This document shows positions 37,259-42,339 of a DNA stretch of 64,000 nt, piece by piece (the first letter of the stretch is position 1; every line of letters starts with the position of its first letter). The notes beneath the pieces were generated by a model, which was not told where the DNA came from, did no database searches, and saw only the letters and a program-made list of their open reading frames with translations. The position numbers and the translations under genes are program-made. Source of the stretch: Snowella sp. (GTDB lineage: Bacteria > Cyanobacteriota > Cyanobacteriia > Cyanobacteriales > Microcystaceae); the NCBI GenBank assembly GCA_035285545.1, contig JAYKGY010000104.1, positions 32,001-96,000 on the forward strand, in the 5' to 3' direction.

Positions 37259-38371
37259 TTAGCCAACCCTTTGCCAAGCCAGCAGTGCCTTGATCACAAA
37301 AGCAGTAGTAATCGTCCGACTTCCATAAAATAAGATTGCTCGAATATTGCCAGATGCCCGACCCAACTCCATACGAATAAATCGACAACTCGGCCAAGAT
37401 TGATCGGATTGTTGACATTCTTGGAGATAACTCAATGCTTGAAAAATAAAGTCTTTATGGATTAAGGTTTTTCCCTCTGGATACGCAAAAGCCAAACCTA
37501 ATAACGCCAAAGCCGTACTTAACGGATCGGTAACCGCCTCAATTCCCCAACCGCTATCTTCTCGTTGAGATCCGACTAAAAAATTAACGCCTCGCGCCAA
37601 GCTAGGGGATAAGGGACGGACTAAAGCCAATAATCGTAAACACACATAAGTTCCGTAAAAAGGCCCGTGATACCAAGAGCTTTGCCAACTTCCATCGGCT
37701 TTTTGTTGGTTTTCTAAATAGGTCACACCCTTTTCAATGACCTGGCTAAATCGCTCTACATCGTAAAGAACCAACGCATACAGCAAATTGGCCATCACAT
37801 CAGGATCAGGGCCAGTTCCCCAAGCTAACCTAGCCCACTCATCTTGAAGTTGTTGTTCTGGAGTACGGTTATTTTTCGGAATAATCCAAGTCTCAAAGGA
37901 ACCATCAGGATAATAATTATCTTTAAGCAAAACAGCTAGGGGCAATTCACAGGTATTTTTTACCTCATCCTGTCGTTGCGATCGCAGCAAAACCTGCATA
38001 ATTTGGGCTAAATCATCTGCATCGGGAGGTAACTCAGGTAAATGGGGAAAATAGCCCCAGCCGCCTACTCCGGTCTGACGTTGACCACTCAGTAGATAGT
38101 TAGTTTCTTGTTCGATCAACGGTTGCCAGACTTCCCCAAAATGCTCTCTGAGATCCCACAAGGTATCAGCAATTAAGGCCCTAGCAAAAATATCGCCCTG
38201 ATGTTCTTCCTGAGGAGAGGTAAACCCCTGGGTCTGGGGAAACAACATCCGATGAGCCGCCTCTGCAAATCCCTGTTGTCCCTGAACTGCCAAAAATTGC
38301 AAACTTTTTTCTAAGCAATTTTGGAGACGGATTTCCGAAAAATTTTGAGGAGAAGGCAACGTAGAAACCAT
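37259..38371 (-). CDS. Single-domain class II terpene cyclase (squalene-hopene cyclase beta-domain fold, prenyltransferase/squalene oxidase repeats)
   Basis: Catalytic DxDD motif (PPDADD) after GGWGY; QW repeats QQKADGSW, SQREDSGW and CQQSDQSW; WYHGPFYGT. ATG at 38371 preferred over TTG 38377. Confidence 0.85.
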   Translation of the reverse strand: MVSTLPSPQNFSEIRLQNCLEKSLQFLAVQGQQGFAEAAHRMLFPQTQGFTSPQEEHQGDIFARALIADTLWDLREHFGEVWQPLIEQETNYLLSGQRQTGVGGWGYFPHLPELPPDADDLAQIMQVLLRSQRQDEVKNTCELPLAVLLKDNYYPDGSFETWIIPKNNRTPEQQLQDEWARLAWGTGPDPDVMANLLYALVLYDVERFSQVIEKGVTYLENQQKADGSWQSSWYHGPFYGTYVCLRLLALVRPLSPSLARGVNFLVGSQREDSGWGIEAVTDPLSTALALLGLAFAYPEGKTLIHKDFIFQALSYLQECQQSDQSWPSCRFIRMELGRASGNIRAILFYGSRTITTAFVIKALLAWQRVG

Positions 38372-38408
38372 AGTCAAACGGTATAAAGCAGGGAATTTGG
38401 ACGTTATT

Positions 38409-39254
38409 TTAGATAGCTTTCGGTAGCTTAAAGGCTAAATCTTCAGCGGTGAGCGGTTCAAATCCTTTATCAATAAAACCTAAACTTTTAAGCCCCTTAG
38501 GTTTTTGTCCTAAAATAGCATTCTCATAAAACATTATTTTGGTATAAAAATCATCTTCAACTTCAAAAATTTCTAATTGATTAGGATACTGATGATGATC
38601 CCAATGATAATATCTTAAAGGACTGACTTTTGGAATCATTAAGCCTGCTAAGACAACCCTTTCTGTGTCAGATTGATTGGGAGGAGAGCAGTGAAATAAG
38701 CGAGTATTATAAACAACGGCTTGGCCAGCTTTCATTGGCAATGCTGTTAAGTATTTTTCCTCAATAACTGGTAATAGATGCCGATAGGGAAACTCATTGA
38801 GTCCTCCCCTGGGCTGAGTATTAAGGTGATGACTCCCTGGGACTAAGTGGAGACAACCATTAAACGGCTGTACATCAATCAGAGGACACCAAATTCCCAG
38901 GGATTGAAATCGACTTTCATCGGTAAAAGACCAATCCTGGTGCATCTGGACTTGACTATCCGTTCGGGCTGCTTTTTTGACAACAAAATTCCAAAAACAT
39001 AAACGATAATCTGGAAATAGCGTTGTTATTTTCCTGCCCAAAAGTTCCTTGGTTTTTACATTAATAAATTTTCGATAATCAACATCTGCACTCATAATAC
39101 TAGGGGCAAAACCTGTTGTGAGTCCAGAAGATTTTTGCTGATAGAGATTTAATACAAATTGTATTTCGGCTTTATCTAGGAAATCAATAACCAGATATCC
39201 CGCTTTTTCAAAGGTTTCTGTCTGTAAAGGAATTTGATGTAAAAGTTGAGTCAT
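38409..39254 (-). CDS. PhyH-family Fe(II)/2-oxoglutarate dioxygenase
   Basis: HQD...H facial triad (MHQDWS; LFHCSPPN.S...R), IWCPL.DV...NGCL.LVPGSH; likely start MTQLL at 39254. Confidence 0.9.
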   Translation of the reverse strand: MTQLLHQIPLQTETFEKAGYLVIDFLDKAEIQFVLNLYQQKSSGLTTGFAPSIMSADVDYRKFINVKTKELLGRKITTLFPDYRLCFWNFVVKKAARTDSQVQMHQDWSFTDESRFQSLGIWCPLIDVQPFNGCLHLVPGSHHLNTQPRGGLNEFPYRHLLPVIEEKYLTALPMKAGQAVVYNTRLFHCSPPNQSDTERVVLAGLMIPKVSPLRYYHWDHHQYPNQLEIFEVEDDFYTKIMFYENAILGQKPKGLKSLGFIDKGFEPLTAEDLAFKLPKAI

Positions 39255-39303
39255 AATTAATCGCAATTTAATGATATTGAAGCTGATTTTATAGCTATTT
39301 CCC

Positions 39304-39669
39304 CTAGTTCTCTTTTGGAAGGGAAGAATCAGAAAGTGATGGTTCACTCACAGATAAATTCAGTCTATTTTTAATACTTAAAAAACTGAGGACAAACCAC
39401 AATTTTAAAATTAACCAAGGGACTGCAATATATACCCAGCGACCAATGGGATATTTTCCGGTTTGAAATGTGGAATGAAATAGAACTAATTGACCTCTTG
39501 CTTCGGGATGTTGTTGATAAAACTGATTGGCGGTGTCTGATTCAATGGGAATTCGCTCTATTTGCTGAAAAGAACACCAGACGACCAGTTGCGACAGTAA
39601 CCGACATTTTCCGCACCGACCTGCATAAAATAGACGGGGTTTTTCGGGCTTTAAAAGATTAGTGTTCAT
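39304..39669 (-). CDS. DCC1-like (DUF393) thiol-disulfide oxidoreductase
   Basis: LFYAGRCGKCR, a variant of the YDGxCxxC motif, near the N-terminus; C-terminal hydrophobic helix. Confidence 0.7.
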   Translation of the reverse strand: MNTNLLKPEKPRLFYAGRCGKCRLLSQLVVWCSFQQIERIPIESDTANQFYQQHPEARGQLVLFHSTFQTGKYPIGRWVYIAVPWLILKLWFVLSFLSIKNRLNLSVSEPSLSDSSLPKEN

Positions 39670-39713
39670 AGATTAATGGGGGTTAATGAACTTTTTAATA
39701 GGGCCGATTAATA

Positions 39714-40739: not shown

Positions 40740-40741
40740 CT

Positions 40742-41422
40742 TTAGTTTTTAGTGACCGATATATTACTAGTAACCCCAGGATTTCCGCTAGAGCCTGACT
40801 GGCCAGGATTACCATTGCTTCCTGGCGTCCCTGGTTTAGCGCCCCCTCCCGCATCACCGCCGAGGCCCCCTTGCCCCCCCTGACCCCCATGACCCCCAGT
40901 TCCTCCTGGAGCCGGATAGGGAGTAGCAAAAACATCACCGCCTTGGGCAGAAGAGGTGTAGATCACTCGAACCGTTGTACCATTGCCGCCGTTCCCGCCT
41001 TTGCCCCCGTCGCCGCCATTGCCACCGTTCCCGCCTTTACCCCCATCGCTTCCAGCACAATCTGCACCAGCAGGGCATTTTGAGGACTCGCCGCCATGCC
41101 CGCCATTACCGCCATTACCACCTTTACCACCATCTCCTCCGTCTCCACCTTTACCACCCCCTGAATAAAGGGTAATATTACCCACTAACTCACTAATGGT
41201 AATCGTTGCGGGTTGAGCATCTAATCCATTACTCCCCTCACCCCCACGAATTCCTGTCCCACCAGAGACTGCATCACTCCCCGGTGAGGAATGCGGATCA
41301 CAGGCTGATTTCCAATCGCAATCAGCATCTCGTCCTCGACTACCATCGTTGCCGTTAGGGCCTGAATCTCCATGACTCCCGCTAGCACCATTGGCTCCAA
41401 CGACTAAAATATCGTAGTTCAT
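40742..41422 (-). CDS. Glycine-rich (GGX)n / collagen-like protein with two CX5C loops
   Basis: GGKGGDGGDGGKGGNGGNGG tracts alternating with beta-strands; C35-DWKSA-C41 and C116-PAGAD-C122; GAGGA RBS. Confidence 0.9.
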   Translation of the reverse strand: MNYDILVVGANGASGSHGDSGPNGNDGSRGRDADCDWKSACDPHSSPGSDAVSGGTGIRGGEGSNGLDAQPATITISELVGNITLYSGGGKGGDGGDGGKGGNGGNGGHGGESSKCPAGADCAGSDGGKGGNGGNGGDGGKGGNGGNGTTVRVIYTSSAQGGDVFATPYPAPGGTGGHGGQGGQGGLGGDAGGGAKPGTPGSNGNPGQSGSSGNPGVTSNISVTKN

Positions 41423-41482
41423 TATGTTTAAATCCTCAAAATAAAATGCAAAAACTGATTATTGATTGTGGGTAAACGAACA

Positions 41483-41638
41483 CTAAGTGTCTTTGACGAG
41501 TTTAGTGAAGGTAACATCTACTTGCTGTCCCTGAGCGACTATTGATCCCCCCTGAATATGAACTTCTTCCGTAAAAGTCTGCTGACGCTGAATCAGGTTT
41601 AAGGGATTGGTTGGAGTAACATTAATTTGAGTGGCCAT
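41483..41638 (-). CDS. Unannotated 51-aa beta-rich mini-protein
   Basis: AGGA RBS, then ATG to TAG: MATQINVTPTNPLNLIQRQQTFTEEVHIQGGSIVAQGQQVDVTFTKLVKDT. Fills the operon gap and resembles the C-terminus of the upstream ORF. Confidence 0.8.
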   Translation of the reverse strand: MATQINVTPTNPLNLIQRQQTFTEEVHIQGGSIVAQGQQVDVTFTKLVKDT

Positions 41639-41676
41639 GACATGTATCCTAATTAAATGAATTGATTAATTTGACT

Positions 41677-42339
41677 TTAAAGCTTGATTTTTTGAAGTTT
41701 TTGAACAGTAAGATTAGTTGGAGAATAAAGGGTAATATTACCGCCTTCTACAATTTCCAGTTCTCCTACCATTAGTACGGCGGGAAGATCCCCCTGAATA
41801 ATGAGCGAACTCCCCGCTTCTATCCGAATTTTTTCGATCGCCCAAACCGCTACTTCAAAAGGAGCATGGAGTTTTTCAATGACAGCTTTATAACTAGCCA
41901 CTAATTGGGAGTTCCCAAAGAGATAGGCATAGCCCGCTTTTTGAATATTCTCTTTTTCAAGATCTGTAAGACGACTGCTTTCAGGAAAATAGTTGGAAGG
42001 CCACGGTGAAGAAGGTAACGCCTGGGTAAAAGAAAAAACGCCTTGCTCAAATAACGCATTCGGCATTCCGATCCAGGCTTTGAATTGATCAAACTGGTTG
42101 GTTTGGCGGAGGCAGGGCCCATAGGACGTTGAGCGGTCTAAGGTCGTGGAGAGAACAACTTGGGAGTCAGCTTTAACAGTCAACAACTCCCGATGCACAT
42201 CGGAAAAATAATTGATATCAAACTCAGATAAAAAAGACTCGAAAGTCCCTTGTCTGTAAGTAAATTTAGGGTTGACTAAGTTTAAGCAATCTTCAAGCTG
42301 CTGTCGTTGAGAATAAATATCGGTAATGGCAGTCTTCAT
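41677..42339 (-). CDS. Hypothetical 220-aa protein with a C-terminal beta-solenoid-like segment; first gene of the operon
   Basis: Likely start MKTAITD (ATG 42339; the longer TTG start lies inside the upstream motif). C-terminus IRIEAGSSLIIQG...GELEIVEGGNITLYSPTNLTVQKLQK. Confidence 0.8.
   Translation of the reverse strand: MKTAITDIYSQRQQLEDCLNLVNPKFTYRQGTFESFLSEFDINYFSDVHRELLTVKADSQVVLSTTLDRSTSYGPCLRQTNQFDQFKAWIGMPNALFEQGVFSFTQALPSSPWPSNYFPESSRLTDLEKENIQKAGYAYLFGNSQLVASYKAVIEKLHAPFEVAVWAIEKIRIEAGSSLIIQGDLPAVLMVGELEIVEGGNITLYSPTNLTVQKLQKIKL

Follow-up and report, generated by a model that had tools for sequence, protein, structure and literature searches.

A putative split-gene cassette for terpenylation of a glycine-rich protein in Snowella sp.

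Fused maturases and the operon of Snowella sp.

Peptide-bound polycyclic terpenoids and the fused prenyltransferase-cyclase ('PC') maturases are already known; the primary report on PC maturases is reportedly that of Hubrich et al. (Chem 2024), which is said to deal with short peptides and fused enzymes. According to a 2026 review, NctPC unites an ABBA prenyltransferase and an MstE-like cyclase in one protein; it geranylgeranylates a tryptophan (Trp) of a ribosomal peptide and then cyclises the attached chain, and ChrPC is a second fused maturase of this kind (PMC13290415). The term 'steromaze' is found in PMC13647313. Here we describe an operon located on the minus strand at positions 37259-42339 of a 64,000-nucleotide stretch of DNA from the cyanobacterium Snowella sp. 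(assembly GCA_035285545.1, contig JAYKGY010000104.1, positions 32,001 to 96,000; hereafter the window). By analogy, this operon appears to be a split-gene version of the PC maturases of ribosomal peptides, because its prenyltransferase family includes forms fused to an MstE-like cyclase. We propose that it is a post-translational terpenylation system, the substrate of which is most likely its own glycine-rich (Gly-rich) protein, with residue W37 as the prenyl acceptor, and we put the probability of this reading at about 0.5. The Gly-rich protein is favoured as the acceptor because of its strict adjacency to the prenyltransferase, its invariant Trp and the published precedent.

As far as the published enzymes are described in the review (PMC13290415), NctPC, ChrPC and the window system would have in common an ABBA-barrel prenyltransferase that is paired with an MstE-like class II cyclase of a single domain. 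In the PC cases described there the prenyl group goes to Trp, which is also the likely acceptor in the window, so that a polypeptide-bound polycyclic terpenoid would be the common outcome. Unlike in the PC maturases, the two activities are encoded in the window by separate genes, which are joined by those of a PhyH oxygenase and a CxxC protein, and the candidate substrate is a predicted folded polyproline-II bundle protein of 226 aa instead of a leader-core peptide. A further difference is that cassettes of the window type accompany a giant SGS1/Rhs-like protein or contractile-injection genes. This comparison is one of architectures as described.

The operon is composed of seven open reading frames (ORFs), all of the same orientation. 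The first gene, unk220 (41677-42339), encodes a 220-aa protein of unknown family; its ORF reaches 42420, and the homologues begin at the ATG at 42339. It is followed by a 51-aa ORF (41483-41638), by the gene of the 226-aa Gly-rich protein (40742-41422), and by the genes of a 341-aa predicted ABBA prenyltransferase (PT-barrel; 39714-40739), a 121-aa CxxC protein (39304-39669), a PhyH-family Fe(II)/2-oxoglutarate oxygenase (38409-39254, with an ORF extensible to a GTG at 39347) and a 372-aa putative monodomain class II terpene cyclase similar to squalene-hopene cyclases (SHC) and MstE (37259-38377). Calculated from the coordinates, the intergenic gaps from unk220 to the cyclase gene are 38, 60, 2, 44, 49 and 31 nt, which agrees with the seven co-oriented genes with short gaps reported in a first-pass annotation of this DNA. 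The spacing of only 2 nt that it gave between the Gly-rich stop codon (40742) and the prenyltransferase ATG (40739) can be read directly in the sequence, where TAA (40744-40742) is followed by the spacer 'AG' and then by the ATG. Its mention of several glycine-rich proteins has to be corrected, as only the 226-aa protein, and neither the 220-aa nor the 51-aa one, is Gly-rich (33% Gly). As the annotation had stated, the operon was found to contain no gene for a polyprenyl synthase, for an aromatic precursor or for a peptidase; two polyprenyl synthases are encoded in the same genome, both on other contigs. Scans of the operon for consensus promoters and terminators gave sites no commoner than in shuffled sequence. 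A search of sequencing runs listed no RNA run with this DNA, and the only run that contains it in full may be that of the source sample.

Recurrence of the cassette and the glycine-rich protein

Scanning for the prenyltransferase family, with one genome taken per species, yielded 17 loci, of which 4 are cyanobacterial, 12 belong to Bacteroidota (Aquimarina, Flavobacterium, Mucilaginibacter, Saprospiraceae and one unclassified) and 1 is alphaproteobacterial. Their content was established by BLASTP of the window proteins against all ORFs of the 17 loci. A Gly-rich gene (221-238 aa) lies directly upstream of the prenyltransferase gene in every locus, and only 2-27 nt separate its stop codon from the start of the prenyltransferase gene at each of the 18 places (17 loci and the window). 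The first-pass annotation had asked whether the enzyme set always occurs with Gly-rich homologues; in these loci it does (17/17). The CxxC protein and the cyclase are likewise encoded in all 17 loci, PhyH proteins in 16, mostly as two paralogues, and a relative of unk220 (108-222 aa, cluster c0) precedes the Gly-rich gene in 17/17. Since the same gene set, with its order mostly kept, recurs in 17 of 17 loci across three phyla, the operon arrangement is not due to chance.

A reverse search from the Gly-rich family in metagenomes recovered at least three short contigs; the prenyltransferase gene came next in both of those with downstream DNA, and the third contig ended too early. One of the 17 loci, L016, carries two pairs of unk and Gly-rich genes, and duplicated precursor genes are frequent in clusters of RiPPs (peptides that are synthesised ribosomally and then modified post-translationally). 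The system is nevertheless rare and patchy. Of 61 related genomes, two, one of them the window's own, had the prenyltransferase, and none of five genomes of the same genus did; among 401 cyanobacterial genomes, a full-length match to the Gly-rich protein was obtained in the window's own only, together with two partial matches in unrelated longer ORFs; and the only one of 401 sampled Pseudomonadota genomes with the prenyltransferase was the centre genome itself. Because of this rarity, wider two-way co-occurrence surveys were uninformative.

Several loci have additional genes. In L017, the alphaproteobacterial locus, the gene order differs in that the giant gene follows the prenyltransferase gene and separates it from those of the CxxC protein and the cyclase. 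Directly upstream of this cassette, there is a gene for a polyprenyl synthase of the farnesyl diphosphate (FPP)/geranylgeranyl diphosphate (GGPP) type (1124-2230; best PDB matches 8.1e-44 to 3.4e-43). L004 of Westiellopsis contains, between the cyclase gene and the giant gene, a gene for a cholesterol-oxidase-like flavoprotein (14282-16354; FAD_binding_4 and Chol_subst-bind, E 2.4e-106), which might further tailor a polycyclic alcohol. The four Aquimarina loci (L005-L007 and L011; e.g. L006 4302-8127) have four genes ahead of the cassette, encoding metallo-beta-lactamase-fold, MenC-like, Rce1-like CAAX-protease-family and AMP-binding proteins; of these, the Rce1-like gene attracts interest because a prenylation cassette adjoins it, but it may be part of a menaquinone gene group.

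The Gly content of the 19 members of the Gly-rich family ranges from 28 to 36%. Each of the 19 proteins has a single Trp, and all of these residues fall in one aligned column, within the motif A-x-C-(D/N)-W-x-x-x-C. The family is invariant at C35, W37 and C116 and nearly so throughout a second loop, C-P-A-G-x-x-C, and W37 is located in the best-conserved non-Gly segment of the family. The Trp is retained even where the accompanying prenyltransferase is only 33-37% identical to that of the window.

AlphaFold2 (AF2) modelled the Gly-rich protein with a mean predicted local distance difference test score (pLDDT) of 88.4 and a predicted template-modelling score (pTM) of 0.74. The model has four short beta segments, between which there are six long segments that are neither helix nor strand (pLDDT about 97); both Cys-bearing loops are its lowest-confidence parts. 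When aligned by VIA-align with 48,161 PDB representatives, the model superposed on the snow-flea antifreeze protein 2pne_A (Z 14.8, root-mean-square deviation 1.2 A, 81 of 81 residues), followed by the Granisotoma antifreeze protein 7jjv_B (Z 11.6) and then by a drop to Z 4.3. The identity to the snow-flea protein over the 81 superposed residues is 42%, which largely reflects a shared Gly-X-X composition. The fold assignment is based on VIA-align; Foldseek also put the springtail antifreeze proteins first by E-value, at template-modelling (TM) scores of only 0.10-0.15. From this superposition we predict for the Gly-rich protein a bundle of six polyproline-II (PPII) helices that stands on a small beta-sheet and bears the Trp/Cys loops at its distal end.

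Six antiparallel Gly-rich PPII helices arranged in two layers are thus predicted in the window protein as in the springtail (snow-flea and Granisotoma) antifreeze proteins. Unlike these, the window protein is bacterial, shows no signal peptide or hydrophobic segment, has a beta-sheet base and Cys/Trp tip loops, and occurs in no antifreeze context; a PHROG search returned nothing for it. Natural PPII bundles named in the accessible part of a preprint (bioRxiv 10.1101/2023.11.25.568672) are the springtail antifreeze proteins, Obg, the acetophenone/acetone carboxylases, the tail-fibre tip gp38 of phage S16, and ALK/LTK, and in gp38, as described there, beta segments lie between PPII hairpins as in the window model. 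The structural similarity to gp38 is weak (Z 3.0 and 2.8 by VIA-align), and on this ground the Gly-rich protein is not taken for a gp38-like adhesin. The functional loops of gp38 are at its distal tip, which resembles the arrangement proposed for the Gly-rich protein. Bacterial proteins of this PPII fold may also bear on the unexplained origin of the springtail antifreeze proteins.

Predicted enzymes and the neighbouring giant protein

The 341-aa prenyltransferase had no Pfam or NCBIfam match even at E<=10, models Trp_DMAT (PF11991), PTase_Orf2 (PF11468) and DUF5838 (PF19156) included, and neither the protein nor its family profile matched a PDB sequence. Its 34 homologues in a set of 5.8 billion proteins are all unnamed and without Pfam domains; an exhaustive profile search gave a family of 482 representatives at E<=1e-3, of which 247 were at E<=1e-30. 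The AF2 model (30 homologues in the alignment; pLDDT 95.2, pTM 0.92) consists of ten strands in five pairs with helices before each pair, that is, five alpha-alpha-beta-beta units. In a Foldseek search against PDB, it gave 131 matches at E<=1e-3, led by aromatic, mostly indole, prenyltransferases, the best being AnaPT (4.4e-14), PriB, AtaPT, 5-/6-DMATS, MpnD, TleC, IptA and FgaPT2. The matches listed had query-normalised TM-scores of 0.64-0.75 (0.74-0.75 for 5-/6-DMATS) at 11-17% identity, with a probability of 1.0 throughout. A structure search of the ESM Atlas agreed independently, with TM 0.81 to a Trp_DMAT cluster. Residues R210, K212, Y214, R216, D269, K271, D273, R329, N331 and Y333 are invariant, and fall on strands 210-217, 267-275 and 328-336 of the modelled barrel; the basic and Tyr residues among them are candidates for binding the diphosphate.

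As judged from the model, the 341-aa protein is an ABBA-barrel prenyltransferase of the indole (dimethylallyltryptophan synthase, DMATS) type. The ABBA fold had been proposed in the first-pass annotation, rightly so, because AF2, Foldseek and the ESM Atlas all point to it; the nearest relatives, however, are of the DMATS type and not of the PatF/LynF family that it named. No enzyme of the cyanobactin F-family (PatF/LynF/TruF) was present down to rank 45 of the 131 Foldseek matches, and no NCBIfam/Pfam match to it was obtained. With the DMATS-type indole prenyltransferases (FgaPT2, PriB, 5-/6-DMATS, IptA, MpnD, TleC and AnaPT) the window enzyme would share the PT-barrel and the ladders of conserved Arg, Lys and Tyr along the barrel strands; it differs in being only 11-17% identical and in lacking a Trp_DMAT match.

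The cyclase matched PF13243 (SQHop_cyclase_C; E 3.8e-15, 56.2 bits, cut-off 26.1) and, among PDB sequences, best the monodomain cyclases 8pak_A (2.7e-15) and 8paj_A (5.5e-13); the SHC 1gsz was also matched. The motif 'ELPxDxDDLA', with its DxDD-type general acid, is invariant in 18 of 18 orthologues. This sequence evidence bears out the class II terpene cyclase proposed earlier, and identifies the 372-aa protein as a single-domain enzyme built of SHC-type alpha/alpha-barrel repeats. The class II enzymes 8pak and 8paj (about 360 aa) have one alpha/alpha-barrel domain, as is predicted for the window cyclase (about 370 aa), and in the alignment the acidic motif is DADD in the latter and DADS in 8pak. 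MstE was absent from the phmmer matches of the window cyclase at E<=1, and is linked to it through a fused homologue (P0035, below). MstE cyclises a free prenylated aromatic acid.

The dioxygenase was also correctly recognised at first pass: the PhyH protein matches PF05721 (E 2.9e-19, 70.7 bits, cut-off 22), and the iron/2-oxoglutarate-binding HQD...H...R motif, with its HxD...H triad, is kept in the 15 sequences aligned. The proposed CxxC oxidoreductase fared less clearly. Residues C19 and C22 of the CxxC motif are invariant in the family, and the protein has a C-terminal hydrophobic helix (residues 78-101). It had no Pfam match, and the family profile gave weak matches, mostly to thioredoxin, glutaredoxin or protein disulfide isomerase (best E 0.051). 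Thus, it is possibly a thioredoxin-like disulfide oxidoreductase.

The prenyltransferase and the cyclase each have a gene of their own, both in the window and at every one of the 17 loci. Among the 150 best of the 482 prenyltransferase-family representatives, however, there are 20 of roughly double the normal size (619-921 aa). Of four long forms checked, P0035 carries SQHop_cyclase_C and P0037 a cyclase region together with PhyH; P0036 and P0038 had no Pfam match at E<=0.01. P0035 (652 aa) shares 41% identity with the window prenyltransferase, in an alignment that covers 95% of the latter as query; in its C-terminal half, it matches 8paj (1.1e-23), 8pak (4.3e-20) and MstE (5e-16). In L016, there is a 666-aa PhyH-cyclase fusion. 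Given the fusions in P0035, P0037 and L016, the prenyltransferase, the cyclase and PhyH belong to one pathway.

The first-pass annotation overlooked the conserved link of the cassette to a giant protein and to contractile-injection genes. Convergent with the operon, a gene on the plus strand (28318-36435) encodes a 2705-aa Rhs-repeat protein with matches to DUF6443 and RHS_repeat (35.7 bits, cut-off 22). In phmmer searches against PDB, it matched mosquito SGS1 (8fjp, E 6.3e-73, in three collinear stretches) and SGS4 (9on3, E 5.9e-58), and its sequence contains the core-like 'YDSRLGRFYGPDP', followed by hydrophobic Gly/Ala-rich helices. By sequence, it is a near full-length bacterial relative of mosquito SGS1. 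Its RHS repeats and collinear similarity to a solved cocoon place it among the Rhs/YD cocoon proteins of the SGS1/Tc-toxin BC type. According to the SGS1 paper (PMC9935623), hydrophobic helices come after the Rhs core in SGS1, which is the order seen in the giant protein; the accessible text of that paper names no terpenylation cassette ('prenyl' and 'lipid' have 0 occurrences each). Unlike SGS1, the giant protein apparently lacks the arthropod Tox-SGS domain.

Orthologues of the giant protein, from Bacteroidota, Cyanobacteria and one alphaproteobacterium, adjoin the cassette in 13 of the 17 loci and are collinear over 1450-2290 alignment columns (32-64% identity). In the genome of L001 and L021, the orthologue is encoded on a separate contig. 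Searches of the L002 and L016 genomes, both of which carry the cassette, did not reveal the giant protein; it is also missing at the locus itself in the cyanobacterial L002 and L003, of which L002 only was searched genome-wide. In these two cyanobacteria, the cassette comes after matches to Baseplate_J (twice), Tail_P2_I and baseplate-wedge PHROGs (L002 1162-8297; L003 1002-8219) and ahead of an eCIS_core-domain protein (L002 14173-16818; L003 14238-16202). These domain matches place it inside an extracellular contractile injection locus, in a position that is usually occupied by tail-fibre or cargo genes.

As regards the surroundings in the window, the region upstream of the giant gene (22000-28000) is low in GC (31-36%). 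It includes a sigma-70-family gene (25605-26384), on either side of which there is one of two paralogous AAA_35 (AAA-like domain) genes (23275-24627 and 26450-27895). These features suggest that an acquired island takes up all of the 22-46 kb region. A Uma2-family gene (36602-37189, minus strand) lies between the cyclase and giant genes. Upstream of the operon, there are genes for an 864-aa protein that lacks a Pfam match and has an N-terminus resembling a signal peptide (42610-45204, minus strand) and for a TIGR03790-family protein (45450-46505, minus strand). None of the Uma2, 864-aa and TIGR03790 genes recurs in the 17 related loci.

Candidate acceptors and significance of the cassette

If the Gly-rich protein is the substrate, it would fold into a rigid six-helix PPII bundle, and disulfides, for which the membrane-anchored CxxC protein might be responsible, would probably fix its two distal loops (C35-D-W37-x3-C41 and C116-P-A-G-x2-C123). 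The chemical steps, all of which we infer, would begin with the DMATS-like prenyltransferase, translationally coupled to the Gly-rich gene, moving a C15-C20 prenyl group from FPP or GGPP, drawn from primary metabolism, onto the indole of W37. The DxDD cyclase would then protonate the terminal double bond, which would lead to a polycyclic terpenoid, and the PhyH oxygenase would hydroxylate the cyclised product. The FPP/GGPP-type synthase beside the L017 cassette and the two polyprenyl synthases elsewhere in the Snowella genome are consistent with such a donor supply. The resulting terpenoid-tipped rod, together with the 220-aa and 51-aa proteins, would probably be a membrane-engaging or targeting accessory of the SGS1/Rhs-like cocoon protein, or, in two cyanobacteria, of a contractile injection system. 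The functional tie to the toxin is the weakest and most speculative step of this scheme.

Several points weigh against terpenylation of the Gly-rich protein. The evidence throughout consists of genomic context and predicted structure. Known RiPP precursors do not resemble a folded protein of 226 aa without a recognisable leader, encoded in an operon without a peptidase. The invariance of the single Trp could be due to structural needs or to target binding, and residues 39-43 of the W37 loop are modelled at pLDDT below 50, so that the exposure of W37 is putative. L017 lacks PhyH within the 15 kb examined, and the L016 cassette has neither the giant protein nor injection genes nearby, so the link to the toxin is not obligatory. 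Another contig of the Snowella genome (L019, 1402-2823) encodes a distant Gly-rich relative (E 1.2e-7) of 473 aa, which begins in the manner of a signal peptide, contains Gly-X-Y and GGX repeats as well as an 'NCDW' motif, and does not have these enzymes as neighbours. A predicted complex of the prenyltransferase with the Gly-rich protein scored 0.00 in a run without controls, which weighs neither way on binding.

The DMATS-type relatives of the prenyltransferase prefer small indoles, and the enzyme set alone would fit a free indole terpenoid equally well, because free Trp or indole and cellular FPP/GGPP need no extra genes. In the most serious alternative, which is possible although we do not consider it probable, the prenyltransferase would alkylate free Trp, indole or another small aromatic compound with FPP or GGPP, and the cyclase and PhyH would elaborate the product into a meroterpenoid. 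The Gly-rich, 220-aa and 51-aa proteins would then be structural parts of the toxin or injection apparatus, co-inherited with the enzymes since the small molecule aids the apparatus (as a cofactor, ligand or membrane-active helper) or since all of them reside on one mobile island. Prenylation, protonation-initiated cyclisation and oxygenation follow classical meroterpenoid logic, and known DMATS-type enzymes usually take free small indoles. The nearest structural relatives of the window enzyme are small-indole enzymes (PriB, 5-/6-DMATS, IptA, MpnD, TleC), precursor genes would be dispensable given the polyprenyl synthases elsewhere in the genome, and the cholesterol-oxidase-like flavoenzyme of L004 would suit a small polycyclic alcohol as substrate. 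A free product leaves unexplained, however, why the Gly-rich gene is always tightly spaced and immediately upstream of the prenyltransferase gene (18/18 places), why one Trp is invariant in a conserved loop of its product, and why the unk and Gly-rich genes are duplicated together in L016. Moreover, the prenyltransferase family holds fused prenyltransferase-cyclase forms, which is the architecture of the peptide maturases as outlined in PMC13290415. The protein-substrate interpretation of the first-pass annotation is therefore partly supported, by co-occurrence, the invariant Trp, the enzyme fusions and the PC precedent, and its alternative of a free meroterpenoid is the less probable of the two.

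Acceptors other than the Gly-rich protein could be the 220-aa and 51-aa products of the operon and the neighbouring giant protein. No Pfam, NCBIfam or PHROG match was obtained for unk220, and no PHROG match for the 51-aa ORF. In the ESM Atlas, unk220 resembled a 202-aa hypothetical cluster (TM 0.77) and a 389-aa 'collagen family protein' cluster (TM 0.66), which is a lead only. The C-terminal ~50 residues of unk220 form a small module, and the 51-aa ORF aligned in hhalign with this module of the unk family (window residues 169-220) at a probability of 92.8% and E 3.9e-7; it is thus a stand-alone copy of the module. A counterpart of 47-57 aa occupies the same gap in all 5 loci with a long (219-222 aa) unk gene, i.e. 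in 6 of 6 including the window, and the Bacteroidota loci have no separate small ORF. A beta-module shared by unk220 and the Gly-rich protein, considered because of a 'GNITLYS' stretch, was rejected (hhalign probability 0.4%). Just upstream of the short unk gene of three Bacteroidota loci, there is a conserved 92-aa ORF ('...IWECxK...GTIY.P.GA.SGTATT...'; L009 1141-1419, L014 8616-8894, L015 8614-8892) without a Pfam/PHROG match.

It is improbable, in our opinion, that the 220-aa, the 51-aa or the giant SGS1/Rhs-like protein is the one that is terpenylated, with the Gly-rich protein as a scaffold or partner. The idea draws on the presence of the unk family in 17/17 loci, on the RiPP-precursor size of the 51-aa ORF and its retention in 6/6 loci with the long unk gene, and on the position of the giant protein beside the cassette in the window and 13/17 loci. 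Nevertheless, the 51-aa ORF of the window has no Trp, Tyr, His-rich or Cys site and lacks a separate counterpart in Bacteroidota; the invariant columns of the unk family (M1, P109, G183 and P186) include no aromatic residue; and the giant protein was not found in two genomes (L002 and L016) that carry the cassette.

We give hardly any credence to a cold-adaptation island, in which the Gly-rich protein would bind ice and the enzymes would make a hopanoid-like membrane terpenoid: it is suggested by the close superposition of the predicted bundle on the snow-flea antifreeze protein, but the 42% identity is largely compositional, the Gly-rich protein has no signal peptide or hydrophobic segment, neither the invariant Trp/Cys loops nor the link to Rhs and injection genes would be explained, and to our knowledge an ABBA aromatic prenyltransferase has no part in hopanoid synthesis.

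Terpenylation of the Gly-rich protein can be extended to a general picture, in which bacteria of at least three phyla would make a 'terpenoid-tipped rod', the tip Trp of which would be geranylgeranylated or farnesylated, cyclised into a steroid-like structure and hydroxylated, the rod acting as a membrane accessory of SGS1/Tc-like Rhs toxins and of contractile injection systems. Taken as a whole, this picture is rather unlikely to be correct in all its parts.

In the literature searched, we found no description of the cassette, of a Gly-rich protein substrate, or of a prenyltransferase/cyclase link to Rhs or injection systems, although the primary work on PC maturases may cover split systems. 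What is new is the split-gene form, the candidate substrate with its predicted folded PPII bundle, the added PhyH and CxxC genes, and the company of SGS1/Rhs-like proteins and injection systems. The analysis defines a prenyltransferase family of hundreds of members without a curated model, and predicts a bacterial member of the rare PPII-bundle fold, which is known from springtail antifreeze proteins, Obg, a phage adhesin and few others. The candidate substrate is easily testable, as it comprises one protein with one Trp.

The cassette suggests that the chemistry of the PC maturases may be carried out on a whole folded protein, which would be a new kind of bacterial protein lipidation. It also connects terpenoid chemistry to Rhs cocoon toxins and contractile injection systems, the membrane-engagement steps of which are poorly understood, and the neighbouring giant protein is, by its sequence, a full-length bacterial relative of mosquito SGS1. 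If true, the general picture of a terpenoid-tipped rod would constitute the first case of polycyclic terpenylation of a folded protein instead of a short RiPP, and might hint at how the bacterial ancestors of the mosquito SGS proteins engage membranes.

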